Program-made: the position numbers and the translations under genes
Notes under the pieces: model-generated
What the model saw: only the letters and a program-made list of their open reading frames with translations
What the model was told of the DNA's origin: nothing
Database searches by the model: none
Assembly (NCBI GenBank): GCA_964187785.1
Contig: OZ076409.1
Location: 45,386,001-45,450,000, forward strand
Length of the DNA: 64,000 bases
DNA from: Amphiscolops sp. MND2022
Taxonomy: Eukaryota
Direction of reading: 5' to 3'
Shown: one piece after another, positions 7,600 through 55,609 of the stretch
Layout of the letters: the number at the start of each line of letters is the position of its first letter
How positions within the stretch are numbered: position 1 is the stretch's first letter

Positions 7600-9642
7600 A
7601 ACAATCCTAACTCAATAACAATGGAACAAACTGTGACTAAGAAAAGCGCGTTCATCGAGGAAAAATATTCCGCCTATTAAAAGAAAACAACATAAAAAAC
7701 TTTAGATGACTCGAACTTTTTCAATAACCTCGGATGACCACGTGTCGTAAGCTTATCGCTGAGAAATTAAACCTAAAATGTAACACTAAAAGTGATTATG
7801 CTACCTTTCTAATAAACAAAACCGATTCCAAGTAGAGTTACATTCAACCACTACGTTGGAAAAAAGAGTGTGACTTGTAATCCAAACGTTTTCTATTAGC
7901 AATAAAACATCCATCAAGTAAAGTCAATTTAACTACAATGCTATCGCAACTTATTAGGACGCATTTAACGACACGCTTATACCGCGAGATACTCGCAATT
8001 ACTACACTAAGCGAACGTGTGGCCTACTGAGCTTAATTGAGATGACCATTAAACAACGTCGCACTTACGTCACTCATTCAACTAGTACGAAGGATTAGCT
8101 AACGTCGCTCTTACGTCATACCAGTGCTGTGCACTCAAAAAGTTTGAACTAATAGCTTACGTCGCAACTACGTCAAAAGTGTACTAACTAAACCTTGACA
8201 TGCTACGTCAGCGCTACGTCAAGCGAAAATTTGTATTTACTATTGAGTCTCAGCAATCGATGCGTACGCTCATTTCTGAGTAGGTAATTGACTATTTCCT
8301 AAGATCACAAACCACTATGGGATTTTTTCGAAAAATCTAACTCCTATAGTTCACAATACGATCAAGGTCACAGTTCAACGATAATTAATACCCCAGAACT
8401 CAATACCCCAACCATTTCTAATAACTTAGAAACCCAATCGTCAGTTTGAAGTTCAATGTTTGTTAAATTGATGTTATGTTAGATTTATAACTGTTGCACT
8501 GAATTTTCCTGAGACGTTGATCTGTTATAGAGAGACGTCTCATCAACGTTGCTATATTAATGAAGCTCAAGATAATTTGCACGTCATACGTGCGTCAAAA
8601 CGATGCTTTGTTTCATATTCCTTGAGTAATCTCCATCATCAGCATGTATTTTAATGTTCAGATTTATTCACCAAAATGGGAATCCTTATTTTCTCCTAGC
8701 ATCAATCCAAAAGATATTAACATACGGGAACTTTTTCCATCAATTTTCAAGGATACTTTCCTGCCACAAGTATTGGCCACTTTCTTCTCGCAGTTTTGAT
8801 TCTTTCCCGTCATTTGACGATCAAGTTGGGTTGTTTCAGTGACAATGAAATCTAAGATGAATCACATTTCCGGTTTAGCCATTTTTTCCCGCTAATAACC
8901 ATCTTTTTAAGGAATTTCTTGAATCCATGACAGAAACATTGTTGATTTCATGACGCTACTCGTGACATGTTCCGAGATCAGGCTTATTTTTCCCGGATGT
9001 GACGATATTCGAGCGTTCCCCGAGGGACGCCCGCATGAACGAATGATGCTAGGAAGGTATATATAAGTGTAAAATAGAGGAGTTGATAAATTAATTCCCC
9101 GTCTTTGAATAATTTGTTAAAAGTTTATTCTAACTTGCTGTAATTGCCTATCCTGAATTTCTTGACTTGTATTCTGCTATTTTCGAGAACCTCGAATTAA
9201 TCAATAAATTTTTGATCAACAACGTTCCCCGAAATTTCCTGGGTACCCATGTCTACTAGAGCCCAGATGAGAAGAGCAGTATGCCAAGAGGAAGAAGTAC
9301 AAGAGTACATAGACCCATCACTACCTAGGGTCCTTAGCTCTGAGTTTAGGGGAGTTGTTGATAACGTCCCATCTACGTCAGTAGGTGAAAGAATGTCACA
9401 AGGCTTGAATGAACTTGAAAGCTTGAAATCCTCCTTGAGAAAAAAGATTACAGAAGAAATAAAAGCTTCAGTTGCCGAGTCTCAAAATGGAATCATACAA
9501 GCCCGCAGGCCTGTTAACAGAGACGACACTGAATCAGGTGATCTAGACCCAGAAACTACGCCAGTTAGAATACGTCCCTCTCTAAGTAAAATTTTGCGGT
9601 TCAACGATGCCCAAATTCTCGAGCCAGATTGTTCTGGTACCA
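7502..9642 (+). repeat. Putative 3' LTR of E1 (boundaries approximate)
   Basis: Begins TGTCAC like E2-type LTRs, contains a CGTC-N7-CGTC array, a TATATA box near 9058 and a gag-N-terminus-like ORF at 9249. No partner copy or TSD is available to confirm it. Confidence 0.4.
8057..8600 (+). promoter_or_regulatory. E1 dyad array CGTC-N7-CGTC
   Basis: acgtcgcacttacgtca, acgtcgctcttacgtca, acgtcgcaactacgtca, acgtcagcgctacgtca, acgtcatacgtgcgtca. Confidence 0.6.
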
Positions 9643-9910: not shown

Positions 9911-10975
9911 GAAAACTCTTTTATGACAGAACAATTCCATGAAACGTTTCAAAAGGCATTTTCGAAAACAACCTTTGATGAATAGTAACTAGAGGTTGTC
10001 GAAAAAGTGATCCAAATATTGCCAATGAATAATAAACTTTAATATGGGTATTGAAATGATCTGTTGACAATCAATATCTTAGCCAAACACCCTATTTCCA
10101 TCAATACAAACAAAACATTAGACTTTGACGGACTGCATTTGAGCAACACTGAACGACTTAGTCGGAAAGGCCCAATTTGCGTGCTCGCGATATGTAACTT
10201 CTGCTGCCAAATTGATGCTTTGCCATGGAACGAGTCAGGCGTTGATTTTATCTGAAACACTTAATGAAGAATAAAATGATGATTCTTTTTTGTATTGCCC
10301 TCTTCCATAACTGTGACAAAATCGCGCCATTTTAGTAGAGTTCTTGTAAAAAATGCTTGCTCCCAAAAATTTAAAGAAAAACTTCGATTGAAAAAGATCA
10401 TCAGAGATGACTAAGAAAATTTTTTGACTAAATTCAACACTGTGCGCTCGTTTTAGGCACTTTTTGAGCATTTCTGGAACTGTCGGGGTTCGAAAAGTCA
10501 ACTTGGTTGCTGTTATTTTGTCTCCGACTGAATCATGCATCTTGAGGTTCTCCTTGATACAAGTATTACGTCCGTAGCCCATGTTCAGCGGTTACTCGGT
10601 GAACTGTCGAACCATGTATCAGTTATAATGCGGTTGAGACATAGATGGTGATCAGATATTATAACTTTGACGTCCAGCACAAGGAGCATATGCTAGAGCT
10701 GGGAAAATGCGATAGTTGCCTGGAGAATATACCAAGTATTTCTAAGAGCCTGTAGTCAGTTTTTTATAAGAATGTTTTTTGGCGAACTCTTTTAGCGTCG
10801 AGAAAACTCTTCAGTTTTTGAATCCGAGTGACGTGCTGGCACGCCCAAATTCCGGACACGTTCAAAAAGGACGTTCAAACGGTTCACGTTTCGATTTTCC
10901 TAACACGTTTCTTAATACCGTACCTACGCCTGGAAATAAATCGGCAGTCTCTGGAGGACATAACGAGAATGCTAT

Positions 10976-13159
10976 TGTCATGCCAGCATGATGGAAATGT
11001 AATCTACTTAATATCTGTAATGTAAATATTATGTCTTATGTACTTAGATATGGGCAATATGATGTCGTATAATAAGGGCCATGGTTGTGAGCAACCCTAC
11101 GTTACTTGTACTTTAATCCCTTCCCCTTTTGAGTGTGAGTTATATATATTTACTTAATACTGAGCGCTCTAGTTCCGGTGTCCGCATAAATGATCTTGCC
11201 AGAATCTAGCCTTGAAAGTGCTATATTTCATAAATATTGGTTTGTCACGACAAGGGAGAGAAGTTTTCCGGTCAGACTGGACCGAGGAATATTGGAAGTA
11301 ATGGAAAATATAACTTCTACTAACTCCCCGCCTCAGAGTATGTAGTTGTGACAAATTCCATTAAATTCATCACAAATTCATCGTCGAATTTGATGACAAT
11401 TTTGATCTGATCAGAAATTTCACTTGGATCCATCAGCGGGTTCAACGGTGTTTTTAACCAAAGTTCATCGCAATCCCATCCTTAAAGTTTGCGAGTGAAC
11501 AAAACATGGGACTTTAAACTGACTTTCATCAGAAATCCATCAACGGATTTTATGGGACTTATTCTAGTAAAACTCATCTTTAATTCATCGTGATTATTTC
11601 ATTTAGTAATTCCTGAATGTGCTTCTCATTTCTAAAGAACAGTAGTCCATCCTTTATTCATCGCGTTCACTAGTACGGAAGAGAAATGAGAAAGTACATC
11701 CTTAATTCATCCTAAAAAAGAGTGAAAGTGCTGGTTATCTGATTTGTTTAGTAAACCCATCCTCAATTCATCTTGATTTCGTTTGTGCTGAAAATTAACC
11801 ATTTAAGCGGGTGAGTTCATCCTAAACTCATCGCCAATTTGTACTGCTTTGGTATTTGCTGTTTTAACTGACAAGTTCATCCTAAACTCATCGCCAAAAT
11901 TCTCCTGTACTAGAATTAGCGTTTATCGACTGAATTCATCCCTAATTCATCGTCATTTGAATCTGTGCTGGAAATTGGCAAATTATGCATGGAGTTCATC
12001 CTTTTGTCATCGTCAGTTTGAATTGTGTTGATTTCCGAGCGAGAAAGACTATCATTCATCGCATTTTCATCCAGAGCAAAACTAGACTTGGAAATCAGCA
12101 AATATTCTTACAAGTTCATCGCATTTCCATCTTCAAGTTTTAAATCATTGATTTTGGCGCTAAAATCAGCGGAAAACATCGTTTTCCCAGTCCAAAGTGT
12201 GCTTCACCTTAAATTTGATTGAAATTAGTGCGTTATTGAATGATTTGAGTCCATTTTAGTTGCTATAGAAACCATGATGTTATGTGCAGGCAATTGCGAC
12301 ATTGTAAATTGATGACTAAACACCATTAACACATGTAAATGTACCATGGTGCGTGGCCACTTTGCGGCAGTTCACAACACTGGTCACGTGACTTACCATT
12401 TTAACACCAGCTGGTAACAGCCAATGAGAGAAGGTTGGTAAGAGATTTAGCGTCTTATCAACCGAAAAGACACGTGAACTGCTGTAATTTGGACCGCCAT
12501 TAAATATTACTCAGCCCGAATTGCGACAAGCTACCGACCAGTTGGATATTTTAACACGCAAAAGTCAGAAAACACATCTCTATTTCATCTTCAGAAATTG
12601 AGAAATTTAAACTGAGTAATTTCTTGGTACATCTACGACTGCGATGAACATTGGATGAACTTCTTCTGAATAACTTGCTAGTTTTCTTTTCCTTATATAA
12701 CTGCTTACTTATTTGTACGACTACTTTCTAAAACATCTCAGTTCAAATTAGTGAATTTTGGGATCGAACTTTCAGTTAAATCAGCAAGATACATCGAAAA
12801 CACATCTCAGATAATTCAGTCTTCACTCATAATTCTTTTCTCTCGAATACATGAATCCGGACCAAGGCACTGAACTTAGAAGCGGTAGAGTTATACATTC
12901 CTCGTCAGGAACATCTTCTCCAATAGATCCAGACATGGCTCAATCGTCCGCCAATGACTCTGACAATAACGAACCTTCAGATATCTCGTCCCAATTGTCT
13001 GAAATAAAAGAGAACTATGAGAAGAAGATAAATGAGTTACAAAGCGAATTTAGTCAACTGAAGAACTTATTGATGGCAGTTATTAGTAAAAATGATGAAA
13101 ATAACTACCTTCAACATCGCAAAGTTCTTCAAAGCCGACCCACAGAGTTGGGTTCGACA
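10976..13159 (+). repeat. E2 5' LTR (2184 bp)
   Basis: TGTCATGCC...TCGACA; about 99% identical by eye to 27476-29660. Confidence 0.95.
11366..12130 (+). promoter_or_regulatory. E2 LTR dyad array CATC-N7-CATC (duplicated at 27866-28630)
   Basis: About 12 dyads, e.g. catcctaaactcatc, catccctaattcatc, catccttttgtcatc, catcgcattttcatc. Confidence 0.75.
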
Positions 13160-14355
13160 TGGTGACAGGAGTTACAGAAACCCGCTCCACCCGCCCGACA
13201 TCCAGCTTCACAAACTTCAGGCGATACCAGGAAGACGACTCGGACGAAGAAGGTGAATCAACTCCTAGAAGCAATGAGGAACGACTACTCAATGCAATCG
13301 AGACGATCCCCCAACGAATCAAAAGCACCACCACCAACACAAAATTACTACAGACACACGTCCCAAATTTCAGAGGCCAAAAAGACAAATTCGTGGAATT
13401 CGAGCACCTTCTCCTCAACCACCTTAGCCCGCTCGCCAACAAAATCACCGAAGAGAACAAACTCCACTTCTTTCAAAGCCTTTTGAGAGATGATGCAATA
13501 GAGTACTGGCAATCCATCCAGATAACGCCACTAACAACACTGAAAGATGTGCTCGACCTCTTCAGGAAAGAATTCGCGAAAGAGGACCTTAAAGAAGTAG
13601 CTCGCTACAAATGGGATCAAGCCCGTTACGATCCCACCACAGAAACATTCAGCGACTTCCTCAAAAACTTGAAAAAGACTGCGAAACAAGCATTTGGGGA
13701 AGAAGCGGATAAAATCATCAAAATGTTCTTGTTCGGTAAACTCCCAGTCGAAATACAACAAGAACTTACGATGGCCAATAAGGAGGAGAGCTCACCAGAA
13801 GAAATCAAGACATACTTGATGAGAAAGTACCAGTACCAACAGTACGTTGCGCCACCTACGACAATTCAACCATTTAACGCGGTCACCTCCTCGGTCCCAA
13901 CGACCAACACAACGATTAAACCAGCAACAACGACGACAACACAACCGACAGAACGAAAACGATTTGAGGGACAATGCTTGTACTGCGGAAAGACAGGTCA
14001 CCGCAAAACAGAATGCCGCGCCCGACAACGTGACGAAGCAAACGGCATTAAGAAAGAAGATGCAATTCCGATGAAGAAAACAACCGACACAGACAAACCG
14101 AAGTACAATCCCAAGCTGGTTTGCCAGATTTGTGGATACACCGGCCACTCTGCAAGAGACTGCAGGCGACGCATTCCCAAGGAAAGCAGCTCTGCATATG
14201 GAAAGATTCCATACACAACAAATTCACAGGACGACAACAAGGCTAGACGACAAGATTTAAAACGACAGCAAAAGCCGATGAATCCAATGCAAGCAAATAC
14301 TGAGGACGACGAACAACTAAGCTACTCTGATGAAGACATTAACCAGGGTTTTTGA
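12851..14355 (+). CDS. gag: E2 gag; starts inside the LTR; 1-bp deletion near 13105 in this LTR copy
   Basis: The 3' LTR version (29351-29660) reads in frame ...HRVGLD into MVTG. Capsid-like region; two CCHC knuckles (CLYCGKTGHRKTEC, CQICGYTGHSARDC). Confidence 0.9.
13160..13171 (+). other. E2 primer-binding site TGGTGACAGGAG (tRNA-Leu-like)
   Basis: Abuts the LTR end, starts with TGG, identical to the E3 PBS; one mismatch from a typical tRNA-Leu(CAG) PBS (TGGTGTCAGGAG). Confidence 0.8.
14346..14352 (+). other. -1 ribosomal frameshift slippery site G GGT TTT
   Basis: XXXYYYZ heptamer directly before the gag stop; pol is in the -1 frame. Confidence 0.8.
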
Positions 14356-17300
14356 TTCAGCCACGATTTCCGCCCGCTAGAAATACAACGCGCGACAAAC
14401 GACTTTCGACTCAACCGACTACACACAACCGTCCAATGAAGAAATGGCAGCCTTCACTGGACAAACGACCAAAAGCTGACGACGTCTATCAGCGAAGACT
14501 TTCCAACGATGAAAAAGCGATGGGAATTGCACGTCAACGCAACGGCAGCCGCTTTTCTCCACTCGCTGAAATCAACGATGAACAAACGATGAACTGGCAA
14601 CAAAACACCATGAGGCAGGTGGAAGATGCCAAAGAGATGGAAACCAACCATCTTGACGACGACTCGACTTTACACTCAACAATCGACAAACGGCTTAGTA
14701 TTAAAAAACATGCAAAACAGAGTAGTATTAACGTTTCAAAAGCTAAAAAACATGCAACTAAAACAGAAATTCACGTTCTCAGTCCCACTTTACACTTAAA
14801 CAAGAAAGATAAAATGCTTTACGTCCCTCTTCAGTTTGACAAATATGAAAACAGCGCACTTTTAGATACAGGCGCAATTCAAAGTGCAATGTCTGAAGCA
14901 GAATTGCGAAAAATAACAACGGCTCATCCAGAAGCCATCCTTCAAGAACTCCCCCCTCCGAATTTCAAAATTCAAATAGCAAACGGGAACTTAGTCCCAG
15001 TACGTAAGCAAGTCTTACTTAGATTTTACGTTGCTGGAAAAGTCTTTGAAGAAACGTTCCTAATCCTTCCAACAATGGGCACAATTTTAATTGGAATGTC
15101 ATTCTTTGAAAAGTACTCAGTCAATTTAGACATAAAAAACCACCTTGTCCACTTCCCTAATCACATGATGTCCATGCAAGTTAGACAGCAAAAGAACAAC
15201 AGATTCAAAACTGGTTTAATTGATTTGTGTTCCAGTACCAGAACAGTGATCCCTCCTCTCCATCAAGTGATGATACAGGTCCACAGTGACGCGGACATCT
15301 CACTTACAACTGGTACAGTTGAGGGCTCACCTGGATTCATGCGAAAGACGTGTTTGCTTGTTTCTCCAGCTTTGGTTGACCTAGACGAGGGCAAGACGAC
15401 AATCCAGGTCACCAACCCGAACAACCACACGTTCACACTTGATGCCAACACCACTCTGGCACACTTTCGCATACCGACACCACATCAGGCGGCAAACATC
15501 ACACCCATGCCAGTCGAACACTTGAACCTGATCACCAAGTACCCAGATGAGGCGGAAGCAGTGATCAACCAACTGTTCGTGAACCCTGAAATGAAGTCAA
15601 CTAAGTGGTACCCAACTCCCGAGACGTGCAGTGAGCCAGACAAACTCAACGCAATTGAGCGACGAATCTATGATGAGATTCTGGCACTACGAGAGCTCGA
15701 GAAGCTTGACCCGTCCCAATCCGATGAACAACGGATGAACTTCCTGAAGAACTTCAACTGGGACGACTCGCTTCTTACTCCGTCTCAACGGTTACAGGTA
15801 GAGGAGTTGCTGGTAAAGTACAACTCCATTTTTGCTAGACATCGTTTTGATATTGGCATGAACACTGATTTTAAAGTTAAGCTAACACCCCAACATGAAG
15901 AACCTGTTTATTCACAAAGTCTCCCTACTCCGACAAATTTGAAGGACGATTTGCTCGTGGAGTTAGCTTTAATGCAAGAGTACGGGATCATAACTACTTT
16001 GCCTCATAGCAAATACTCATCTCCGATATTTGCTCAACGTAAACCAAATGGTAAATTGAGGATTTTAGTTGACTTGAGAAGAATAAACCACTTGATCAAA
16101 AACGATTACGGTGAACACAACCATCCCGTAACAACAATTGCTGACGCTGCCCAACACATGGCCGGGAAAAAGTATTTCTGTAAACTTGATTGTTCCCAGG
16201 CCTACCATTGCATTCCAATGGCCGATGAGCAGTCTGTCCAACTGTTATCGTTTAATTTTGGTTCTAGAACTTTTGCCTTTTTACGTCTAGCCCAAGGTCT
16301 TAACCGTTCTTTGTCAGCATTCACAAGTGTAGTCCGTGAGTATTTGGACCCCTTGGTCAAAGCGGACCGATGTGCTCAATATGTTGATGACATTGGAATT
16401 GCAGCACACACCCCTGACGAACTGATTAATAACCTTGAACTTGTTTTTCAGCAGCTGAACAAAGCCGGTCTTAAACTTAGCATGAGTAAATGTGAATTTG
16501 GGCAAAAACAAATTGAGTACTTGGGAAAAACCATTTCTAGCACCGGTATTGCTCCCATTGAGAAACGAGTAACTGACTATCTGACCAAATTGAAACCCCC
16601 CAACTCAGTGAAAGCATTGCAACGTTATCTTGGTTTTGTAAACTTTTACAGGTCTTATATTCCCCGACTAGCTGATAAAACTTGTTGTTTACAGGAATTG
16701 ATCAAGAAGGACGTCCCTTTCAAACTGAATCAACAACATAAAGATGCTATTTTTGAAATCAATGAAAGTTTGTTAAAAGCAACAAAAGTGTCTCTGAAAT
16801 TGCCATTACCTGATAAACAATTGGTAATCATGTGTGACGCCAGCGAACACGCTGCCGGCTATGTTTTGTTAATTGAGGATTATGCTGACCCGTCAGTCAA
16901 ACAAACATACGCCCCTGTTGCATTTGGCTCTAAGAAATTTCAGGGCGGCCAGATGTCTCTAACAATGTATGCCAAAGAGTTTTTAGCTATGCACTTTGCC
17001 TTCGATGAATTTGGCCACATTCTGTGAGGTGCGAAAAAACCCATCATTGTTATGACTGACAATAAGGCCTTGACTAGATTTTTTCAGGCGAAGCATATCC
17101 CGCCTTCACTTCGGAATTTTTGCGATCAAACCCTTCAGTTCAATTTTTTATTAGCACATGTTCCAGGAGTTGAAAATCCCGCAGCGGACTACTTATCTCG
17201 GCTTGAGATTAGACCTGAAGACCGTGTACATTTAAAATTGACTGATACTTTTCCAATTCACAGGATCGAGATCGACATCGCCTCCCGTACACCAAAACAG

Positions 17301-19445
17301 GAGGAAGACGAGCCTGATTACTTTCCCACGAGCGAACCACTCAGATGCAAACGCCAGAAGGATGTCAAAGAGATGAAATTGGCAACTGGCACTGACGTGG
17401 CTCATGACGATGGGAAAGGGATGAAGTTCACCAACTGTGAGAGAACAGCGGCCTCAGATGACTTCGCGACTGACAACCATCTGACGTACCGCCTCACAGA
17501 CGTGGACGAGCCAATTCAACTCTCGCAATTCATCCGTAAAGTATCATTATCACACCCGGTAATGAGTCAGGTTAGCCCCGTTGAGGGGATCGATCTAATT
17601 CAGGTCCAGAAAAATAACTGGGTTATTCAAAAAATGATTAGATTTTTAGAAGGTACTGAAATTTTGCAACACCCAGTTAATATGCAAGATCAGTTTTTTC
17701 AAAAGTTGCACAAAAATCGAAAACGCCTACAAGTTGTAAACGGTGTCATGTACAGACAGTTTTTTGATCACACGGGACTGGAGTCTCACAAGCAGTTAGT
17801 TGTTCCTGAAGACTGTATTTTGAAAATAATTAGGACTCTACATAACAGCCCGGTACAAGGACACCCTGGTTTAAAGAAAATGTTGTACGAACTTCGTAAA
17901 AGATATTACTCTCCTAACTTAGCCTGTAAAGTTCAAAAAGTCCTTGACGGATGTGAAAACTGCATGAAATCTAAAAGTGTAAAAGAAACGCAACTACGTC
18001 CACCGTTACAAAAAACCTACGACCCGTGCGACGGACCAGAAGACCTGTTAGAAATAGACATCGTTGGTCCACTCCCGGCGTCGAACGGTTTTACACACAT
18101 TCTGACGGCTGTTGACGTTTTTTCACGCTACCTGTTCGCCGTTCCGCTGAAAAGACCTGATACACATTCCGTAGTCAGAGGATTACTGTCGATCTTCACG
18201 AAACACGCGTATGTGCCCAAGCACATTCTGACGGACAAGGGCACGGCGTTCACGGCTGAACTTCTGTCTGAAATCGCGAAAGCGGCTGATATTCACATCT
18301 CCCATGCCACGATAAAGCACGCACAGACAATAGGCAGGGTGGAGAGAACGCACGCGAAACTGAAAAAGATCCTTAAAATTAGTGTAAACGCAGACCGACC
18401 ACAATGGGACCGCTATGTCGACATAGCAATCATGGCCCATAACACAACGTATCATGATTCACTGAAATGTTCACCAACTGAAATTTTCCACGGAAGAACA
18501 CCATACAACCCACTAGATCTGCAATTCCGAAACGCAAACAAACCGGCTGAAACAAAGTGCAAGGACGTGAACGAAGTTCTAGACAAAATGAACTTCATCT
18601 TCAGAGACAATCTAGATAACATCATTTCCGCCTATCATAAGTACAAAACGTACTATGATAGAAAAGCACGAGCACAGCCACTGAAGGTGAATGAATTTGT
18701 GTTCCTACTAGATCCTAAGTACGATTCTCAGAGAAGCAAAGAAGAGTTTAAAACGTTCCATTGGAAAGGACCGTACAAGGTGATCAAAGTGCTATCCGAT
18801 AGCAACTACATCATCCGCAAAGTAGGCACACACCAAACTCAGTGCGTACACAGAATGCGACTGAGGTTGTTCAAACCGGAATTTCCGATTGATGACATCA
18901 ACGTGTCCAAACATCTCTACCCAGACACTGAAAGGGTTGAAGACACGGACATTTTCGACTCGAATATTCCGACGACCGACGAAGTAGATCAGAATGAGAA
19001 TGACAATCTAGATCAAAACTTAGTCGAAGAAGAGCCTTCAGAAGAAATAATTCCACAGGTACAAGAACGACACAGTCCACAAGTAATTCCTCCAGAAATA
19101 ACCACGAGAATAGATTATCAGCAAGTAGAAACTGACCACAACAACTTTAGACCACCTACAGTTAGATTTGGAACGCAAGAGGAAATTATTCTACCGCCCC
19201 CCCGCGATGAAAGTAGGATAAGAGTACCTCTGAGAGACGAACAACACGAAAATCAGTCACAACAGACAAACACGCAAAGTGAAGATGAGGAAAGGATGAG
19301 TTCTAGACCTTCTAGAAACAATCAAAGTAGGTACAGGTTACGCGAAAACCCTACACCGAAAAAATATCCTGACTTCCTTATTCATGAGATTACATCAGCC
19401 AGAAACTCTCTGAGAAAGACCAACAAAGTAAACGTAACGAGTTAG
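14352..19445 (+). CDS. pol: E2 pol: protease, dUTPase-like insert, RT, RNase H, integrase; one in-frame TGA at 17025-17027
   Basis: LLDTGA; YVDD; CDASEHAAG/KEFLA; HPG..CENC; EIDIV/LTDKG/VERTH; WKGPY. Confidence 0.95.
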
Positions 19446-19473
19446 CCAAGAAAAACAACATTTCAAAACACAC

Positions 19474-21325
19474 GATGTGTTAAAGATGAACAATTCACAA
19501 AAACGAGTCAATTACATGCAATTTCAATTTAAAATGAACATGAAGATGTAAAATGGATGAAAAGTTACTAAAAATCACATGAAAAACGCATAAAAACAAA
19601 ACACGATGTAAAACGGATGAAAAACGACCAAAAAACCAGAAAAAACAACACACAAAAATTTGAGATGAAAAAAGGATGAAATCACATGAAAATTTAGCTC
19701 AGACACACGAGAGATGAAAAAGTGATGAACTCAGTCAAAAATTCGACCAATCAACATGCAATATTTACTAGCGATGCATTTGAGATGGAAAATACCATCA
19801 GAATGCGAACGCACTCACGTTCATGCTGTCATAATACTCTAGCTCGGCTAGAGGATGAAATAGCGATGAATTCGATCCAATTATTCAGAAATTACATGAA
19901 ATCAATTAACGAGATGAATTTGTGATGGACACTACCATCAAATCGTGACCGAATTTATCGTTAACCTGACACAATACTCTAGCTTCGCTGGAGGATGTCA
20001 AAACGATGAATTTAGTCTAAATGGAAGTTCGAAAATATTAAATGACTTACCAAAACCTCCTTGCGATGGGAAACACCATCAACATAACATCACAATAAAT
20101 CAGCTAACTCTCAAACAACATGTAACTCCACGAAACGATAAAAAACAACCGACTTTATTTCGAATCATGCAAACAGAATTATGCGACACAAAAATGAAAT
20201 GATCAATACATGTAAAGTTCAAAGACCTGCCAAATCAATGACGTCACGAAAGAAATTGAAAAATCCAAACTACATGCAATACAAATGAGTAACACACGGA
20301 AATATACATGTACCGTTTAAAAACGAACGAGATAATATATGCAATTCACACCAAAGGCATCCAAACCTAGACGAATAAAAATGAAACAAACAATCGAAAA
20401 TACATGAAGCCTAATAACTTACATGCAAAATATAAGAACTGACGAAACACCTACAAAACGAATAAAGGAGTGAGCACCCCCCAGCAAACATCAGTTCATA
20501 ACAAGCAAAACACCCCTATCGAGAAGCCAAAAACATTCCTTCGTGCTGGCTGGCATTTCTCTGAAAAGAGTGCTGGTTAGTTGAGGCGGGGAGCTCACAA
20601 CCATATTCGGATGAAGCTTGCTGCGTTGGTTATCCAGCGGCTAGTAGATTCTCAGTTAGTTTTGTAGGGGCTTTGAGACGACAAAGCCCTGTCCAAATTG
20701 ACGAACAAAATCAAGAAATAACCAACATGCAAATAATGGGGTAACCCATTAAAAGATTACATTATGAAAATACCACGAACACCAAAACGACATGTAAAAT
20801 TAAAAAGAGAATGAAAATCATACTGAGACAGTATAAAATGAGTAAAACATGCACATACCATATGAAAAGTACATTCCCGAAAACGTCAGAGTCACATAGC
20901 CACGAAAACGCACAAAATTACAAAATTTCAAAATTACGATGAAAAGAAGATGAACTATACCGCAAAACGAGCAAAAAACTTGCCAAGTCAAACTTGCGAA
21001 GCAAAAACGATGAATTACACCAAAAAACTAGCAAAAATGCAAAAATTAAAAGGCAAGATGAAAAAACGATGAACTATGTAGAAAAATCACATGTAACAAA
21101 CATGCAATGAATCGCATATAACAAACGATGTAAAAAAGATGAGAAATCAGTTTTCGCAACGTCGCTCGGTCGACCGAGGAAAACGTGATGAAAATGAGAT
21201 GAGAAATCAAAAATGAAACGCTACCGAATCACCTACACTCCCACGAGATGTAATAACGATGATTACCGCAAAAAGACTAGCTGAGAATTGTGACAACGCA
21301 AAAACGATGTGAAAACGATGCTAAT
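19474..21325 (-). promoter_or_regulatory. E2 internal dyad arrays (GATG-N7-GATG on +)
   Basis: Clusters at about 19474-20010 and 20938-21320 (e.g. 21057, 21127, 21187, 21247, 21306). Confidence 0.7.
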
Positions 21326-21628: not shown

Positions 21629-24600
21629 TTAATTGCCGATCTCCGGACTGGCAGCTCGTTCCCCACTAAGCGTGTATCCTAGCTTCGCATACAATTGGAG
21701 ACGATAATCTTCTCCGGCCACAATTCCGATGTCGTCCCACAACATACCCTCGTCCAGCTTCGCCAAATTGACCAATCGTCGATGTGACTCAGTCACTTCC
21801 TCTAACAAAGGGCCGCTCACACTGTCATAACTTTGGATATGATTAGCAGACAAATAGGCCAAAATCACAGCACAAACACAACTCGTGACATCGCTTCTTA
21901 ACTGCCCAAATCCATCGCAGCAAAGACTGCTTCTGCTCTGAACTCCTCCATCTAGGCATAAAACACTGCGAACCAGATTCTGAGCGCCACCACTAGAACA
22001 ATGGCGAAGAAGATCGATGACAGAACAACCCTCTGTACGTCCTGCTAGTCCCGGGTCACGTCAGATATTGACAAGGAAATCCAGAAAGCCACGTTCCATC
22101 CGACCCTGCTCCGCACGGGTGATCCGACCCAGATCCACAAGCACATCAGTGAAAATCCTGATCTCGTCTAATAGGACGTCCTCTGCAACAAAACTCAGAC
22201 AGGGCATACTGAAAACACTGCGCACAAACGACAGATCGTCTCGCACACCTGGGAGATTAATAACAGTCTTCACAACGGTTAGAATGAAAACCGGAACAAG
22301 TGACAAATCCTCTTCATATAGAGCGGCATTCGAGCCTTGATCGTCCACACAACGAAATCCGTCCAGCAACACCTGATGTTTCACTTCTGAGATTTCATAG
22401 CTTTCCACATTCAGAAAGAGCCATCCACGAATGTCCAATTCCGATGGTAGCTTTTCTTCCTCTACTAGCATCATCATCAGTGACTTCACAAAGGCAGCAC
22501 TCTCAATTGCCCAGTAGCACGCGCGCAACGTCGAAGACCCAAAACTCTTCTCGTAGGAGCTGATCACTGAAAAACACGAATCACAATTATCACAAGAAAC
22601 AACCAGGTTTAACATTACACCCACAACCGTAAAACTTCCAACTCGATCTCAACAAAAAAACCAAAACCCCCCCGTAACTTACAGAACTAAAGTATTACTA
22701 ACAAGCACGGTACACAAGACCAAGAACACGGAGTCTAATCGGAATGCCGATCTCAGCACGTAGTGTCAAGTCTAAGGCATCCAAAGGCCCTTCACCACTA
22801 GCGAAGCGTAGCAAGCATAAGATGTCAGACCAGTTCGTCCGTAACTCCTCGCACACATCGGCCAGGGTCCAAATGTACACCTCGCCGGTAAGAATCGCCT
22901 AAAATGTAAATAATACCATCCCAATCAATTCGATAAAATCAAACAATTACATCACGCCTACACACTTGCACAACACTAAAATTATTACATCATCCAATTC
23001 TCTAATATACTACGTACTTGCAGAAGTTGAGGGCATCCTAGCAACAGAGGATCTTTCACGTATCCTTTGAGACGTTTCTGTAAATGGTTCAGTACCACGT
23101 GAATGTCTGTACCCCCCAGCACTGATCCGGCCACATCCACAATTGCCCGACTGACATCTGACAGTCCCAGAGACTTCACGTCCAATGATCCGACTCCTGT
23201 GCTGCTTCGAAAGAGCCCACCCAGCTGCGGCAACTCATCGCAACACAGTCCAAGTGGGACTGGCTCACCGAGCATACAGCACCACATGTTCACTAGCCAT
23301 GTGATTACCCTGCTTTCCCAGTCTCGAACCACACTGAAGCTAAACACACAGTAGTGCTTGACCCCGTCTAACACACACACTGTAACAGTCCCTGTCACGC
23401 GCCCTCCCACAACTGACAAATGGAAGCTACTGTAAGTGCTATCGGTCCAGACAGCGATCAGTCGCCGCATCACGTACGGCCACAGCCCTAATACGATCAC
23501 GCTCTAAAACAAAAACGCTGTGAATAAAACATAAAAAAAGCATCCACCCTACCCCCCACCCACTACTAAAACTAGAAGAACACATAATGGCCAAAAGTAT
23601 GACTAAAAAACATACGAGTAGACGCTTACCATGACATCGTTCAATCCGCATTGCGCCCCAAACAAGACCGCATGTTGGGGATCGGAAGCCACCAACACTT
23701 CCCACAGGTTCGTGACACTGGCAAACTGACAATCACGATATAGGGCGTCCACAACAAAGCAAATAAACAGACGAACAGTTCGCTCTGGCCAGTCTTCCCC
23801 TTCCTCTTCGTCGCCCCACACAGGTCGTCCAGCACCCTCCAACTCGAAAACTTCCACCACATTAAGTGATGGACAGGTCTCTATGAAAGGCACGGACACC
23901 CCCTCCAGGTTCACACGGCATTCTGCACTTTCGTCACTTGTCATGAGAGTTCCATCACGTCGCCGCAACGGTAGCCCTCGGTGCAGCCGTACCACACAAT
24001 CCAGCCGATGATGGCCTAGGCCTCGGCAGTGCTCCATAAAGGTGGTAATGCCTCGGCTGCCCACCTTAACATCTCTCTTGCACATTAGACATCGCACATA
24101 CGACATGCGCGACTCGTGATTGCGTGCATATCCTAGCGCCAGCCCGCAGTATGGATGATCAAACCATCCAGACTTGATCACTTTCTTTCCTGATAATCAC
24201 AACCACACAATATAGCAAAAGTAATACCATTACAAACCATCATAGACAACGACTAAAATCATCTGTTACACATCAGAAAAATTCGAAAAATGCAAAAGTC
24301 ACAAGTAAAAACCAAAAAAGTTCACCCGGAGTGATGAAAACATGATGTAAAATAATATTTTCATTGGAAATATAAGCGAAAAACGAAGAAAAAACAAAAA
24401 GATGAAAAAGAGATGTGTTTGCACACCACCAGAATGAAAAATGGAAACTTTAAAGAATGAAAAACTCGAACGATGGAAAACAGATGAATAGAACGACTTT
24501 GAACCAAAATTGAGATATTTTAGAGCGAAAACAACTTAACGATGAAAAAGAGATGTAAACTGAAAAGAAAACACTGAAAAATAGCGAAAACCGAAACGAG

Positions 24601-26301
24601 GAATTTTAAAGATGTAAAAGAGATGGAAAGTTCTAAAAAAGGACCAGAGAGCGAAAAGACTATTGTTCAAAACTTTTGACGATGAGAAAGTGATGGAAAA
24701 TGGAAAACTGCAGAAAACCATATAGTGAAAACAGAGAAACGATGGAAAAAGGATAGAAAAGAAGAAAAACGTGAAAAATGCTAGTGAAAGTAAAAACGAA
24801 GAAGGAAATGAATGAAAATCTACTGATCAGATACTTCACCGGTTTAAAGCTGTTTAGTTAACCTGGCAGACGAGATGCAATGGGCTCGTCATCGGAGTCC
24901 AACAGGCTGGGTCCCATTGGAGACGTCTCGATGTCAGCAGTAGCCACATTGGACGCAACACTCCCTGGAGCAGACACGCCAGACGGAGGACTACGAAATG
25001 AGAAATCGTCAGGGATTTCCAGTAGGGTCTCGGTGGTGCCAGCTGAGGGAACTTCGGACGGGGCAACGTCAACGTCAACTGCCCCAGGAACATCAGCAAT
25101 CGGTGGAGGAGGAGAAGACGGTGGAGTAATCGCTGGAGGATCATAGCAGGTAGCAGCATCTCCAGTTTCAGTGACAGCTTGGACAGTTTGATCTGCAACG
25201 CCCACACAGGCATTGATGGCCATGTCTCTACAATCGACAACAGCATTTACAGCAGCGTCGAGAGTAATACGAGCAGGAGGAGGACTAGCAACGGTGAAAG
25301 ATCGCCTTAACACTGGCGACAGTACAGACACTGGCGCCTGCCTGACAGGAGAACTCACTCCAGTTAGCGACAGTTCATTGAGGAACGAGGAGAGGTTGAG
25401 TTGAGGAGGCCCTCCTTGTGTGCTGACGTCAACGCTGCCATCACCGAAGTCACTGGTCCCGATCCCGATAGAATAGGTGATGGGACGCGGTCTCGGGGCA
25501 TGGATAGACGTTGGACCTGAAAGAAGGAAACAGAAATCAGACGACGACGAATGAAGAAGAAAGTGCGCGTACGCCGCGCGAAGAAAGAAGACAGGAGAAG
25601 AATTCATCTCAAATCCATCCTCAAAATGGAATTCGCAACGAATCAGCCATGAAAACTGTGGATATTCATGATACATCCTAAATTCATCCAAAAAAAAAAG
25701 AATTTTATGAGGTAACCGACCGCGAAGGGCACTACATGCAGATGAGATGTTTACATCGGAATTACATCGGAGTGTCCGGACGATGCTTTAGTACAGGAGG
25801 AAAGTAAAATGGAGTCAACTCACTAAATTGATGGATGCTATCTCGTAGCATGTCCCGCATGTGGCGATCATACCACCCGAAGGTGATGCTAACGAGGGAG
25901 GCATACCAGGGATAGTGATCTAAACAGTAACGGAAAGAGTCAGCGTCTGAATGGATCGGGGATGAGAAAAGAAGAGATTGTAGACTGAGATGATGATCTG
26001 AAAGGAAAGAACTTACACTGCGGAAGATACGGGACGTTAGGGGCCTGTTCAATTTGCTGCTCAGGTTGATACTGAGGTGCGTGAGATGCTGCATGGATTG
26101 GAGCCTCTTGAGGCGGAACTGTCTGCAACGTAGTCAGCTCGGAAATGATGCCGACAGAGTGAACGGAGTCCGCTAAAACCAAGACACGCCTTCAGTTCCT
26201 AAATATTCCCTAACCCGTTTGTGAAGAAGAGAAAAAATAGTGCACTTACTTTCTGTGGCCTCGGTCTCCGGTAACGAATAGACGGAGTGGATATCCGACA
26301 T
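21629..26301 (-). CDS. E2 antisense spliced gene: Ser/Pro-rich N-terminus, ZnF, degenerate hAT-transposase-like body; premature TGA at 22061-22063
   Basis: Introns 23504-23629, 22899-23017 and 22567-22702 join ORFs in frame; probable introns 24190-24862 and 26173-26249. ZnF is CLMC..FMEHCRGLGH. Confidence 0.75.
24333..24760 (-). repeat. About 70-bp-period GATG-N7-GATG array inside a predicted intron
   Basis: Dyads at 24333, 24401, 24472, 24541, 24611, 24681 and (24741). Confidence 0.75.
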
Positions 26302-27469
26302 CGTGAAGAATTGCAAAACAATCTGAAAAGGAACGGAAGAGAGTGAAGAAAGGAACGAAATCGAAGAATCTGAGGACAAGAACTTGATCAGTAATTAAAT
26401 GGCCTGATCAACCATGATTGCGAGATTACAAATTCACGAAAAACTTTAAAGAGCGCGAATGCTGCTTGAGCGACAGGACAAACCAAATACTTGAAATTCA
26501 GAAGATGAAAAATCGATGAAAACTCTCCGATTTCAATGACTCTCTACACTTTTCTTCCCCGTTTCAACCAACTTAGCAATTTTCTCTGAAAATGAATCGC
26601 CCCCCAGAATTTGACTACAAAAGCTTCAAGTATTTGATTTTGATGACAGCTGCCAGTCTCAGATCAATGCCGACGAAGTTGAGCGGAAACGCGCAAAGGA
26701 AATCGTGGCGATTTTCAAAACCGACTTGACGGAAGATGATTCACGGATGAGAATGTTTGTTAACAACCGGTTGAGTTTCCTCCAGTTCAGAAAATTCAGT
26801 TTTCCGCCAATCAGAATTTAGCAGCAGTTGCTATGGCGACGATTTCATCTCTTTCTCACCGCTGAGAAAATCAGACAGCGGAAGCGACAGTGACGGTTGC
26901 TATGACAACAAAATCATCTCTTTCCTATCGCGGAGATTGACAGAGCGGCGGCGCCAGCCGTCTGTTAAGTCAACATCGATGTCTCGCTGAGTAAACAATT
27001 CATCGTTCATTCATCCCGGGAAACTTCGGCAGACAAGAAATGGCGCCGATTTACTGCCAAATTGTCAACGAAACTAGCAGAATGTTTACTTAGCGTAGGC
27101 GGCCTGAGGAAATCTTTTCACCAGGAAATCGAGATTTCCACCGAAACAATCGACAGACCGAGCTCCCACCAAAAGCATGACAACCAATAAAATGCAGATC
27201 AGCGGACATTCGATGGGCCAAGAATTAGAGTTGCCGCGTCGAAATTTTTAACCGAAATCACCCAGAATGAAGCCAGACATGACGATTGCCGATAGTCCTC
27301 TTCTCAGAGAAGATACACACAGGACAGAACAAACGAAGGAAATGCCAATTCAGAACGAACGAAGGACCAATTTTCTCCCTAACCAAACGAAGGAACCAGT
27401 CGAAGCCAACGCCGAGACAACCATCCTCTGCACATTTGGCCCCTGCACTCTCAATCCAAATCCCGCCCC

Positions 27470-27475: not shown

Positions 27476-29660
27476 TGTCATGCCAGCATGATGGAAATGT
27501 AATCTACTTAATATCTGTAATGTAAATATTATGTCTTATGTACTTAGATATGGGCAATATGATGTCATATAATAAGGGCCATGGTTGTGAGCAACCCTAC
27601 GTTACTTGTACTTTAATCCCTTCCCCTTTTGAGTGTGAGTTATATATATTTACTTAATACTGAGCGCTCTAGTTCCGGTGTCCGCATAAATGATCTTGCC
27701 AGAATCTAGCCTTGAAAGTGCTATATTTCATAAATATTGGTTTGTCACGACAAGGGAGAGAAGTTTTCCGGTCAGACTGGACCGAGGAATATTGCAAGTA
27801 ATGGAAAATATAACTTCTACTAACTCCCCGCCTCAGAGTATGTAGTTGTGTCAAATTCCATTAAATTCATCACAAATTCATCGTCGAATTTGATGACAAT
27901 TTTGATCTGATCAGAAATTTCACTTGGATCCATCAGCGGGTTCAACGGTGTTTTTAACCAAAGTTCATCGCAATCCCATCCTTAAAGTTTGCGAGTGAAC
28001 AAAACATGGGACTTTAAACTGACTTTCATCAGAAATCCATCAACGGATTTTATGGGACTTATTCTAGTAAAACTCATCTTCAATTCATCGTGATTATTTC
28101 ATTTAGTAATTCCTGAATGTGCTTCTCATTTCTAAAGAACAGTAGTCCATCCTTTATTCATCGCGTTCACTAGTACAGAAGAGAAATGAGAAAGTATATC
28201 CTTAATTCATCCTAAAAAAGAGTGAAAGTGCTGGTTATCTGATTTGTTTAGTAAACCCATCCTCAATTCATCTTGATTTCGTTTGTGCTGAAAATTAACC
28301 ATTTAAGCGGGTGAGTTCATCCTAAACTCATCGCCAATTTGTACTGCTTTGGTATTTGCTGTTTTAACTGACAAGTTCATCCTAAACTCATCGCCAAAAT
28401 TCTCCTGTACTAGAATTAGCGTTTATCGACTGAATTCATCCCTAATTCATCGTCATTTGAATCTGTGCTGGAAATTGGCAAATTATGCATGGAGTTCATC
28501 CTTTTGTCATCGTCAGTTTGAATTGTGTTGATTTCTGAGCGAGAAAGACTATCATTCATCGCATTTTCATCCAGAGCAAAACTAGACTTGGAAATCAGCA
28601 AATATTCTTACAAGTTCATCGCATTTCCATCTTCAAGTTTTAAATCATTGATTTTGGCGCTTAAATCAGCGGAAAACATCGTTTTCCCATCCCAAAGTGT
28701 GCTTCACCTTAAATTTGATTGAAATTAGTGCGTTATTGAATGATTTGAGTCCATTTTAGTTGCTATAGAAACCATGATGTTATGTGCAGGCAATTGCGAC
28801 ATTGTAAATTGATGACTAAACACCATTAACACATGTAAATGTACCATGGTGCGTGGCCACTTTGCGGCAGTTCACAACACTGGTCACGTGACTTACCATT
28901 TTAACACCAGCTGGTAACAGCCAATGAGAGAAGGTTGGTAAGAGATTTAGCGTCTTACCAACCGAAAAGACACGTGAACTGCTGTAATTTGGACCGCCAT
29001 TAAATATTACTCAGCCCGAATTGCGACAAGCTACCGACCAGTTGGATATTTTAACACGCAAAAGTCAGAAAACACATCTCTATTTCATCTTCAGAAATTG
29101 AGAAATTTCAACTGAGTGATTTCTTGGTACATCTACGACTGCGATGAACATTGGATGAACTTCTTCTGAATAACTTGCTAGTTTTCTTTTCCTTATATAA
29201 CTGCTTACTTATTTGTACGACTACTTTCTAAAACATCTCAGTTCAAATTAGTGAATTTTGGGATCGAACATTCAGTTAAATCAGCAAGATACATCGAAAA
29301 CACATCTCAGATAATTCAGTCCTCACTCATAATTCTTTTCTCTCGAATACATGAATCCGGACCAAGGCACTGAACTTAGAAGCGGTAGAGTTATACATTC
29401 CTCGTCAGGAACATCTTCTCCAATAGATCCAGACATGGCTCAATCGTCCGCCAATGACTCTGACAATAACGAACCTTCAGATATCTCGTCCCAATTGTCT
29501 GAAATAAAAGAGAACTATGAGAAGAAGATAAATGAGTTACAAAGCGAATTTAGTCAACTGAAGAACTTATTGATGGCAGTTATTAGTAAAAATGATGAAA
29601 ATAACTTACCTTCAACATCGCAAAGTTCTTCAAAGCCGACCCACAGAGTGGGGCTCGACA
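27476..29660 (+). repeat. E2 3' LTR (2185 bp), containing an intact copy of the gag N-terminus (29351-29660)
   Basis: Direct repeat of 10976-13159, followed by TSD GCTAT. Confidence 0.95.
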
Positions 29661-33400: not shown

Positions 33401-33412
33401 TAAATTAGCGCA

Positions 33413-36749: not shown

Positions 36750-36905
36750 AACCGCAGGGTGGCGAGTATACGTCATTGCTCAATCCGTATAATGCCGCAT
36801 AGTATTCAGCTGGCAATTCCGCGTACTGCCGCATACTCATCACTGCAATTCCGCATACTGCCGTATGCTCGTCTCCAGTCGATCCGCATACTGCCGCATG
36901 CTCTC
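36750..36905. promoter_or_regulatory. E3 CGCATA-N4-CGCATA array (about 33-bp period) between divergent genes
   Basis: ccgtataatgccgcata, ccgcgtactgccgcata, ccgcatactgccgtatg, ccgcatactgccgcatg; CCAAT at about 37020. Confidence 0.65.
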
Positions 36906-40300: not shown

Positions 40301-41577
40301 CGCTCGATCACGTATAAGTTCAAATCTTTCGAGGTGAGAACTTATATCACTAATGCATTTCTGCACGTGACGCGTATTGTAACTTTTACCAAAAGTTAAC
40401 ATTCACTTGTTCTGATTTATTCATTTATACTAATGGTAACAAACATCATTTTGTTTGGTGTGTTTTAGACAATTCTGCATTCTCTGAAGTCCAGTCAAAT
40501 GTCGAGGGCGGCTTCCGATTATTCAATCAATTTTCGGTATTCATTTATAGCCAGCTCCAGAGTATCTTGCCTGATGCTACACTAGGCAGCGTTTCTGATT
40601 GGGATGGGTTCCTACAGTTGGATTTGAACCAGCCAGAACTCCCTTTCAAATCAGCAGATGAGTATGTCCTAAATGAGGATTTTCACCGACTTGTTGTCGC
40701 AAGCAAACTGCCGCGCCCAAGCAAATTTGTAGACCAGTCCATCGCGTTCGGGAAGGCCTTGTGTAAACAATTGATGGAACATGAGATCGTCAATTCTGGT
40801 CTCGTTAAGGGTTTGTCTGCCTTCGATCCTGCGGTAATTCTTGATGGACCCGAAAGCCACTACATCACTGCCATAGAGAAATTGTCTAGTCATTTCGTTT
40901 CTATGAAGCTGATTACTTCGAGTGACAAAGCGAAGGTGACAAGTCAATACCGTTCCTTTGCCATTAAACTGCGGTCCGAAGCAATCCCGGCTTATAGTGA
41001 TTGGATTCACTTCCTTTCAGCTCATCACGAGATCCAATGTCGACCTGAGTTGTTTCGTCTATATAAGCTCTCCTGTCTATGTTTGCCCCCTCTTGTAGAC
41101 ATACCTCCGGAATTCACTGTCCCAATGCCCAAGTTAGCTGTTGATGCGGAGATGTTTGATTCATGCCTTAGAAGTCTCCAAATGTCATATTCAACAGTTC
41201 CTCACGTGTCCAGTTTATACAAGGATCCGAAGTCCGTGTGCAGAGTCTTCCGCCTGTTGGGTCGTGGATCCGATCTACTAGTGGACAAAAAGTTTTCCGT
41301 CTGGAACTTCTTAAAAGGAAGTGGTCCTCGTCGGACTGCAATGTTGGGAAAAATGGAGGCTGAATACCGAAAGGCAGTTCTACATTACGACAGGCCAGTG
41401 GTCACTTCAAACACTACTACTCCCAGTGTTAGCCGGGCAAGTAGCACACACAGCACTCCATCTCCTGATTTGTCTTTGGGCAGAGTTAATGTGTCGCTTA
41501 GTCGCTGTGCTAATGTATCCCCAGAGGGTACTGTGAAGAAAAACAATACCAAAATTGTGAAGGGCAAGAAAAACTAG
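37309..41577 (+). CDS. E3 antisense spliced gene: Ser/Pro-rich N-terminus, ZnF, degenerate hAT-transposase-like body
   Basis: Introns 39007-39081, 39568-39632, 39768-39853 and 39936-40468 join ORFs in frame. ZnF is WWCRVC..LMSHYRSESH; C-terminus has W..F....RPELFRLYKLSCLCLP. The 5' exons (37309-37423, 37702 onward) are tentative, with a frame break near 37855. Confidence 0.8.
40201..40303. repeat. 33-bp tandem repeat x3 carrying the E3 dyad, inside an intron
   Basis: ccgcatagtgacgcatagtcgccacagcttgtt repeated. Confidence 0.9.
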
Positions 41578-54549: not shown

Positions 54550-55609
54550 GAACATTATTGATGAATTTCGCTACTACGACAAGTCTTTCCGAAACATCAT
54601 TAGATGTTAGATACTCTCGAGCCTACTTCGAGGCTGCTTTGAAGTGCGTTGTGAACTACTTGCTGGGCTATCTTCATTAGACTTACTAATAAAAGCCATC
54701 ATAAGGTCCCTCAGTTGACTAAGTTCTGATGCAATCACTTAAAAATTCATCCAAATTTGGCACAGGTTGGGTTCACGATGATTAAAGGATGGACTTCCTC
54801 CCACATTTGCTATTCCCAGCAAAATTCTAAACTGACGATGAAATATTGATGTATTTGTACCAATATAAGTAAATCCAGCTCAATCGCTCTTTTATTGATG
54901 AAATTAAGACGTACATTCCCATTTTCTCAGTGTTGTCTAGCACGGCGATGAATTACTGATGCGTTTTATGTTCAAAAAAATAGATGTATAATGGTTCGAA
55001 TTGTCAGGTCGATTAATAGTACATCAAACGAGCCCGCTGATGAACTTGCGATGTATTCCCTTGTATAAAGCATCAAATTACTACTAGCGATGATTTTATG
55101 ATGAATTTGGTATAACTTTAAGTTACGCGAAATCCGCCGGTGGAGTTGCGATGAGATTAAGTAGTCAAGTCCCGCATATGAATTAATTGCAAACCCGCTG
55201 ATGGGTTTACCATGAACTCCAACATTTAAGATGGAGATTCGTCACGACGGTCGCTCAGAGGCGGGAGCTTACGAAGTATCCTTGAAGTCTACCTTCTCTC
55301 TGTCCTTCGGTCCAGTCTGACCGGAAAAACTTGGCTCCATTGTCGTGACAAACTACTATTTTATATAGCATTTTTTTGCTGTAAGCATGATCATATTTGC
55401 GGACACCGGAACTAGAGTGCTCAATATTAGTTAAATACGTAGCTCAAACTTAAGAAGGGGGTGATGAGATTAAGTACAAGTAACGTAGAGTTGCGCACAA
55501 CTATAGCTTTTATTATATGACTTCATATTGCCCGTAAATAAGTACATAAGACATACCATTTACATTACAGATATTTAGTAGATTTTATTTCCATCATGTT
55601 GGCATGACA
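54550..55609 (-). repeat. Diverged partial LTR of an E2-related family
   Basis: Reverse complement begins TGTCATGCCAACATGATGGAAAT and follows the E2 LTR start. It retains GATG-N7-GATG dyads (54777, 54837, 54947, 55039, 55089). Left end unclear. Confidence 0.8.

Follow-up and report, generated by a model that had tools for sequence, protein, structure and literature searches.

In the literature consulted, the element-encoded, motif-specific self-regulators described, VANC and TnpA, belong to plant DNA transposons; the candidate considered here belongs to a retrotransposon. In the Arabidopsis MULEs known as VANDALs, the element-encoded VANC protein is paired with dense, same-orientation arrays of family-specific motifs in introns, intergenic and terminal regions; tandem duplication enlarges the arrays, the protein diversifies together with its motif, and the effect of VANC is DNA hypomethylation (available part of PMC5735166). 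TnpA of Spm (KAKUSEI) is a transposase-derived, non-catalytic and sequence-specific regulator, has family-specific clustered motifs and activates cognate copies; it has not left its DNA-transposon superfamily, works through HTH domains and binds at termini, and the main text of the preprint, as available, contains none of the whole words 'LTR', 'retrotransposon' or 'BED' (bioRxiv 10.64898/2026.08.24.746577). The BED domain carried by Hermes transposase reads a 4-mer with AT-rich flanks, cooperatively, phase-sensitively and as a multimer, with base-reading residues at the eight positions before the first zinc His, in loop and helix (available part of PMC10368747).

Plant Retand elements carry an antisense ORF (PMC11963269, PMC7264820). 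In the accessible text, the Retand/Tat protein has a TRP28 domain and is restricted to plants, and no link between protein and arrays is drawn (PMC11963269); the function of LTR-retrotransposon antisense ORFs is stated there to be unknown (PMC7264820, PMC11963269). Coe1 of beet places a CACTA transposase within putative LTRs and, in the portion available, reads as a single locus, not a clade (PMC2426827). Foamy virus Tas, as far as the sources at hand describe it, is a functional analogue, a retroelement-encoded activator of its own LTR and internal promoter; it differs in being an unrelated protein encoded by a sense gene. Tas binds DNA directly; to our knowledge it has few response elements and no phased arrays.

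The window analysed here, a stretch of 64,000 nt at 45386001-45450000 in a eukaryotic genome of 1.07 Gb, contains three related Ty3/gypsy elements, designated E1, E2 and E3:

10976-29660, + strand: E2, complete Ty3/gypsy element with 2.18-kb LTRs (99.2% identity), gag and PR-RT-RH-IN
10971..10975 and 29661-29665: E2 target-site duplication (TSD), GCTAT (5 bp)
10976..13159, + strand: E2 5' LTR, with TG...CA ends; the gag frame opens inside it
13160..13177, + strand: putative E2 primer-binding site, TGG... directly after the LTR
13105..14355, + strand: E2 gag, with a CCHC knuckle; in this copy it is out of frame with the upstream portion encoded in the LTR
14343..19445, + strand: E2 pol, with PR, RT, RNase H and IN in Ty3/gypsy order; in-frame stop at 17025-17027
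27476..29660, + strand: E2 3' LTR, with 13 dyads at 27868-28691
33411-49308, - strand: E3, with LTRs of 1.49 kb (98.6% identity) and an imperfect TSD
E1: only the 3' part of this third Ty3/gypsy element is in the window; LTR about 7502-9670, its end inferred

E2 thus has TG...CA LTRs, a TSD in the 4-6-bp range (GCTAT) and gag followed by PR-RT-RH-IN, as expected of Ty3/gypsy. In each of the three elements, a multi-exon gene antisense to gag-pol lies between pol and the 3' LTR. Like VANDALs, E2 carries family-specific motif arrays in its own non-coding regions; unlike them, as far as the available descriptions go, it is a retrotransposon whose sites are paired and phased, whose protein resembles a transposase and in which CpG methylation leaves little signal. 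Homology of the antisense protein to VANC was not found: the host element is Ty3/gypsy, and no Pfam family scores above cut-off. As described, Hermes is catalytic, with a CCHC finger and a palindromic cooperative pair near the TIRs; here the finger is CCHH, direct repeats serve as sites throughout an LTR element, and no conserved DDE was seen. The elements are built like Retand elements and encode an unrelated protein: PF04195 (TRP28) gave 0 matches at E <= 0.1 in 12 accessory ORFs and 15 homologs. The system would function like VANC/VANDAL and TnpA/Spm and be a member of neither. No description of such a system was found in a comparison that took in the largely open-access literature.

Some features of the coding regions may be recorded here. 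The gag start lies inside the LTR in both E2 (12833-13165) and E3 (47819-48427), and the frame reads through the LTR end and the primer-binding site; both primer-binding sites begin TGGTGACAGGAG. An in-frame stop occupies the same place in RNase H in E2 (17025-17027) and E3 (44054-44056) and is absent in E1. In E2 it is probably private decay of this copy; programmed read-through is unsupported, only this copy having reached E <= 1e-33 among 150 scored candidates. A weak dUTPase-like Pfam match (E 0.04) falls between the E2 protease and RT, at 15220-15470. A second conserved ORF, sense to gag-pol and entering the start of the 3' LTR, is present in E3 (34857-35936, - strand) and E1 (6895-7599, + strand); the two match neither each other nor any Pfam family, and each has homologs across its own clade. 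No homologs were seen in E2-clade loci (0 matches), and because these loci carry the densest arrays, the sense ORF was set aside as the binder of the sites.

The arrays themselves are distributed as follows:

11368..12131, + strand: E2 5' LTR array, 13 dyads, mostly 59-61 bp apart
14059..19298, - strand: E2 gag-pol dyads, starting at 14059, 14508, 14577, 14625, 15723, 17361, 17409 and 19284
19474..20008, - strand: E2 post-pol array, 9 dyads, spacings 49-81
20938..21320, - strand: E2 array downstream of the antisense gene, 6 dyads
24333..24695, - strand: E2 antisense-gene intron array, 6 dyads, 68-71 bp apart
25605..25768, + strand: 3 E2 dyads oriented the other way, in the antisense gene's upstream portion
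26504..27015: 3 scattered E2 dyads upstream of the antisense gene, 2 on the - and 1 on the + strand
54777..55609 (span 54600-55609), - strand: diverged E2-like LTR fragment, 80% like the E2 LTR over 300 bp, 5 dyads remaining in an array that has diverged elsewhere
8057..8220, + strand: E1 LTR array, 4 CGTC-N7-CGTC dyads, 46/57/46 bp apart
36784..36903: E3 period-10 array, units 32-34 bp apart
about 34430-34580 (LTR) and 40090-40303 (intron): further E3 period-10 arrays

The first-pass annotation had proposed dozens of CATC-N7-CATC dyads in E2, to be judged against composition-matched background and genome-wide, and the excess is real. E2 minus its 3' LTR contains 54, against a shuffle mean of 0.62 and maximum of 4; the interval 11366-12135 alone contains 13 such direct repeats, against a mean of 0.075 and a maximum of 1 in 200 dinucleotide shuffles, and 26 of its 27 CATC words sit in these 13 dyads, two to each. 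When gaps of 0-25 were scanned across the window, gap 7 gave 39 + 39 matches and every other gap 0-5. Three dyads at exact 60-bp spacing gave 4,793 matches in the genome, mostly copies of one clade and so not independent, against 0 for a reversed-pattern control. In E2 the two halves of a site are repeated directly and do not form a palindrome; each half extends beyond CATC, to about WWWYY-CATC-N-Y, and has AT-rich flanks.

Arrays occupy the E2 LTR, the region after pol, the region after the antisense gene and the introns of that gene, in both orientations. The LTR array fills the 5' half of the LTR, upstream of CACGTG (12385, 12471) and CCAAT (12421) elements. Dyads, described earlier as concentrated in non-coding parts, are not confined to them, 9 of the 54 lying in gag-pol; a supposed array near 26.5-26.7 kb comes down to two dyads, with one more at 27001. 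Within gag-pol, gap 7 yields eight same-strand dyads, gap 13 yields 2, and gaps 3-6 and 8-12 yield 0; six of the eight fall outside Pfam-matched domains, and internal spacings are 69, 48 and 48. The CATC word turns up in parts of E2 that are not homologous to one another, facing either way, and also in its coding sequence.

Of 35 spacings between adjacent E2 dyads, 33 measure 48-49, 59-61, 68-73 or 80-81 bp. Phase coherence over these 35 spacings, which are partly dependent (units duplicate), is R = 0.80, against a maximum of 0.59 in 1000 uniform draws; leaving out the 60-bp class gives R = 0.73, reached in 0 of 1000 draws. The best-fit phase period is about 10.2, a value that is not precise. 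Cores have been kept and their flanks have diverged. Core identity is 0.83-1.00 against 0.52-0.90 in the flanks in 19 of 21 orthologous array alignments (E2 against 7 relatives with finger exons 61-78% identical in DNA), a comparison in which repeated anchors may favour the cores; the other two, both introns, were lower (0.67 and 0.73). Paralogous E2 units have the cores in common, with flank identity of just 0.31-0.34, and the E2 arrays go uncalled by TRF. A plain minisatellite was rejected on these near-random paralogous flanks, the shared cores and the missing TRF call. The pattern looks like selection on word and spacing, not like a decaying satellite.

The motifs attributed to the other two elements fared differently. 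CGTC-N7-CGTC in E1 is real and sparse (7 against 0.5 expected). For E3, the literal form CGCATA-N4-CGCATA occurs only twice, both times in a 33-bp tandem repeat at 40.2 kb; what stands is the period of 10, the site being degenerate, TAT[G/A]CG at period 10, with 12 sites. All sites in the mapped E3 and E1a loci have one orientation. The idea of a spacing of one helical turn survives as about one turn, periods being 10, 11 or 12 according to lineage.

These lineages were compared over 70 loci: 55 hand-picked from 450 listed matches to span identity classes, 8 from 150, 2 from 64 and 2 from 54, plus E1-E3. In a blind dyad scan, CATC at period 11 came first in all 19 E2-clade loci, a period-10 word in 14 of 16 E3-clade loci and a period-11 word in 18 of 23 E1-lineage loci; period 11 was also first in both SKG-type E1-lineage loci, and lineage 4, with few sites per locus, had period 12 on top de novo in only 3 of 8. 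Six finger classes go with six direct repeats, GATG/11, GACG/11, ACGGA/11, TATGCG/10, GGACG/12 and CAGGCC/12, modelled as GATG[AT][AG] /11, [TC]GACG[TC] /11, [AT]ACG[GA]A /11, TAT[GA]CG /10, GG[TA]C[GA] /12 and CAGGCC /12. Leave-one-out site models matched the finger class in 68 of 70 loci; held-out loci had close relatives in training, and the classes were drawn after the blind-scan results. The cross-matrix of models is near diagonal between lineages, and sub-groups within the E1 lineage overlap. Spacing between dyads is lineage-specific as well, with six values (60, 45-46, 50-53, 58, 32-33, 38-39).

Recognition segments are near-fixed within lineages and differ between them: SRGITTFME, xRG[A/S]xE..R, A[H/Q/D]GSGEF and SKG[S/A]AEF, and further SRG[S/P]LE..S, S[R/K]GEPEIWR and SRG[P/A]RGIWR; SRGITTF[M/W]E is fixed in 7 of 7 E2-clade rows. 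On a finger tree of 41 rows, some near-copies omitted, five labels need 4 changes, the smallest number possible. Loss of the Arg accompanies a drop in G from 38-59% to 17-23% just before ACG, in a single clade, the H/Q/K-for-R sub-clade being one event. A prediction fixed beforehand, that the SRGPRGIWR type carries another word, held in 2 of 2 loci: both have 0 matches to ten earlier models and carry dispersed CAGGCC dyads, sharply at period 12 (4 and 7 sites). The expected loss of cytosine from that word did not occur. The two held-out misses, L182 and L183, with Glu-bearing, Lys-type fingers, have 2-3 CAGGCC-model sites, and L185 has 1; such sites in three Lys-type lineage-4 loci blur the advance prediction. 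A fixed code in which Glu reads C is only partly borne out. A dense TGAA/period-16 signal near the L124 finger exon (29 against 1.3 expected) is presumably a repeat with no relation to these words. That each family has its own motif to go with its own finger, as suggested at the outset from three elements, is supported more widely by these six classes, six motifs and the advance prediction. Motif and finger are co-inherited; concordance with the tree is expected of any family trait, there are only about five independent switches, and co-inheritance explains part of the match.

The protein that would read these words is encoded antisense to gag-pol:

23603..24196, - strand: E2 zinc-finger exon, C-x2-C-x16-H-x5-H, predicted recognition segment SRGITTFMEH
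22985..23503, - strand: E2 middle exon, RNase-H-like strand pattern by eye; no conserved acidic residue where the first Asp would be expected
21629..22648, - strand: E2 C-terminal helical exon, broken here by a stop near 22061; uninterrupted in relatives, e.g. L091
2864..5457, - strand: E1 antisense gene, with C-terminal, middle and zinc-finger exons, homologous to E2 and E3
37855..41577, + strand: E3 antisense gene (E3 itself is on the - strand)

E1 and E3 have homologous finger, middle and C-terminal exons. Pairwise search of E2 against other lineages matched only the finger exon, and homology of the E2 middle and C-terminal exons rests on position and multiple alignment; the splice position after the finger exon is common to all three elements. 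A lineage that occurs in this genome too has the three exons in one frame of about 880 aa, which confirms that they form one protein. Each finger query against the genome gave 3,028-6,779 first-look candidates, which are not copy numbers; a profile search gave 1,133 clusters at E <= 0.001, of which the 10 looked up had no informative name. The finger is under purifying selection, pN/pS being 0.06-0.18 for 9 of the 10 pairs compared and 0.40 for the remaining one, whose members are nearly identical. Longer homologs were sought with the E2 finger exon and not found, and two JGI metagenome scans gave no confirmed locus.

In lineage 4 (L178-L185, L188, L189), the part from finger to C-terminus is intronless, and E1-E3 share intron positions; there has been intron loss or gain within the antisense gene, whose introns would survive reverse transcription of sense RNA. 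Four homologs on short contigs (P0123, P0202, P0203 and P0013) are 44-52% identical to the closest compared and may be those of other species; P0123 carries an SRGEIEIWR segment.

The affinities of this protein point to hAT transposases, each match being below significance and the argument lying in agreement among searches. The C2H2 ligands are invariant in 36 of 36 finger sequences, and the finger model has two strands and then a helix, with pLDDT 86-96 over the finger. Foldseek placed the Hermes transposase first for the finger-exon model at E 0.76, with Hermes and ZBED1/2/3 spanning E 0.76-5.6; VIA placed Hermes 370-609 first of 48,161 chains for the C-terminal model (Z 4.2, rmsd 5.8, 174 aligned), a rank tied with unrelated rows. 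In the Atlas, residues 50-480 scored 0.90-0.92 to clusters that are mostly hAT-derived FAM200/ZBED5/EPM2AIP1/DUF4371, and the whole protein 0.79-0.82. At E <= 0.001, Foldseek matched neither the finger nor the C-terminal model, the latter having no match at all; a wide VIA search with the finger model did not list Hermes (best Z 5.1); Pfam gave nothing above cut-off, and no BED match, in accessory ORFs or full-length homologs; and PDB sequence searches with three profiles gave nothing meaningful. On this agreement, the antisense protein is probably of hAT transposase origin. The link, noted earlier for the finger, has become stronger, as the whole protein looks transposase-derived, if by matches that are each weak. 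The gene does not look like an autonomous or nested hAT DNA transposon: it has the same place, orientation and splice position in E1, E2 and E3, and inverted repeats of at least 100 nt were not found inside E2.

Across 25 middle exons, the part following the first predicted strands has no conserved acidic residue, and a single invariant acidic column comes later; among 30 C-terminal exons there is no invariant D/E, with five columns at 77-90%. With none at the expected first Asp and none invariant C-terminally, we infer loss of catalysis, the positions being judged from conservation.

One way to understand these observations together is that a captured, probably dead hAT transposase binds the phased direct repeats of its own family as a multimer, promoting or protecting transcription; this is the account we favour, with some reserve. 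The multimer would place a pair of fingers on each direct repeat, separated by about one turn, and the 10-11-bp ladder between dyads would keep successive sites on one face of the DNA. In each lineage, recognition helix and word would have drifted to forms of their own, with the word multiplying through the LTR, the introns and the 3' region and reaching even gag-pol; the protein would then recognize its own family only, and most likely promote or protect its transcription. One word at one period, kept or gained in several unrelated parts of each element, in coding sequence and on both strands, goes beyond what linkage explains and argues for a family-specific selector acting in trans. Direct binding of the dyads by the element's finger protein is, on these sequence patterns, probable; an activating or anti-silencing role is evenly poised. 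The anti-silencing role proposed in the first-pass annotation gained no direct support. CpG o/e is 0.91-0.97 and CpG transitions run at only about 1.1-1.75 times CpC/CpT rates, which suggests little germline 5mC and therefore makes DNA demethylation in the manner of VANC doubtful; any silencing that is opposed would more likely be histone- or small-RNA-based. A broader scenario, in which a class II transposase has been domesticated by a class I element as a private, sequence-specific chromatin regulator, the clade splitting into non-cross-reacting protein-site pairs, a natural code for BED-type fingers that thousands of copies in a single genome would spell out, and self-activation enabling it to fill much of the genome, is conceivable and tentatively put, at slightly less than balance.

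A second perspective supposes that the arrays are enhancers for host transcription factors, tandem-expanded in each lineage from whichever host site it happened to have, and that the antisense protein does something else. The position of the E2 LTR array upstream of CCAAT and CACGTG elements fits this, as do the signs of unit duplication (the 32-33-bp repeats of E3, the shared 22-mers of E2). The E1 site contains TGACGT, which we take to be a CRE/bZIP-like word. However, six words in the same 10-12-bp direct-repeat geometry would need a new host factor each, always switching with the finger, and sites are also found in introns, the 3' region and gag-pol; the perspective is unlikely. Equally unlikely is that the protein does bind and serves as an autorepressor or a control on copy number, as an insulator, or as scaffolding by which element DNA (cDNA, intasome) is looped or tethered. 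The sites extend through the entire element and are not limited to promoters, there is little sign of DNA methylation to counter, the arrangement can be likened to hAT octamers gathering subterminal repeats, and rigid phasing suits an architectural multimer (available part of PMC10368747). Against it, sites are packed most densely in the LTR's 5' half, upstream of promoter-like elements, and the closest tested systems, VANC and TnpA, activate, as far as the available reports describe.

Two further readings deserve very little weight. The words might act in RNA, as sites for an RNA-binding finger, Gag or splicing factors, or by pairing of LTR CAUC with internal GAUG. A turn of A-form helix is 11, equal to the E2 period; E2 LTR and internal arrays are mostly in opposite orientation, and the finger region weakly matches TUT4/TUT1 (VIA Z 4.5, rmsd 3.4, 63 aligned; Z 3.8, 1.9, 45). 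Yet the mapped E3 and E1a loci, with a single orientation, have no partner arrays, other lineages have periods of 10 and 12, and both orientations occur within the E2 antisense transcript. Alternatively, the arrays would be neutral minisatellite relics or generic nucleosome-positioning sequence, inherited by lineage: linkage alone gives lineage specificity, and the AT-rich 11-bp periodicity reaches into the flanks. Conservation of cores beside near-random flanks already largely refutes this, and the same word and period recur in unrelated contexts and coding sequence.

The favoured account, binding of its own family's repeats by the captured transposase, is directly testable with the named proteins, predicted sites and non-cognate controls, as a 6 x 6 binding matrix. 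If true, it would be a case in which a gene captured from another transposon class benefits the element and not the host, and would provide fingers matched to their sites from which a BED recognition code could be worked out.

Elsewhere in the window, the stretch at 57-64 kb, with 0 CATC/11 dyads, serves as an incidental negative control; LINE-like RT and endonuclease fragments were seen there by eye at 57894-58850 and 62212-63480. The LTR relative at 54600-55609 (- strand) keeps its CATC dyads though only the first 300 bp align, and a short second LTR-end fragment lies at 56668-56806, beyond an assembly gap (56105-56304).
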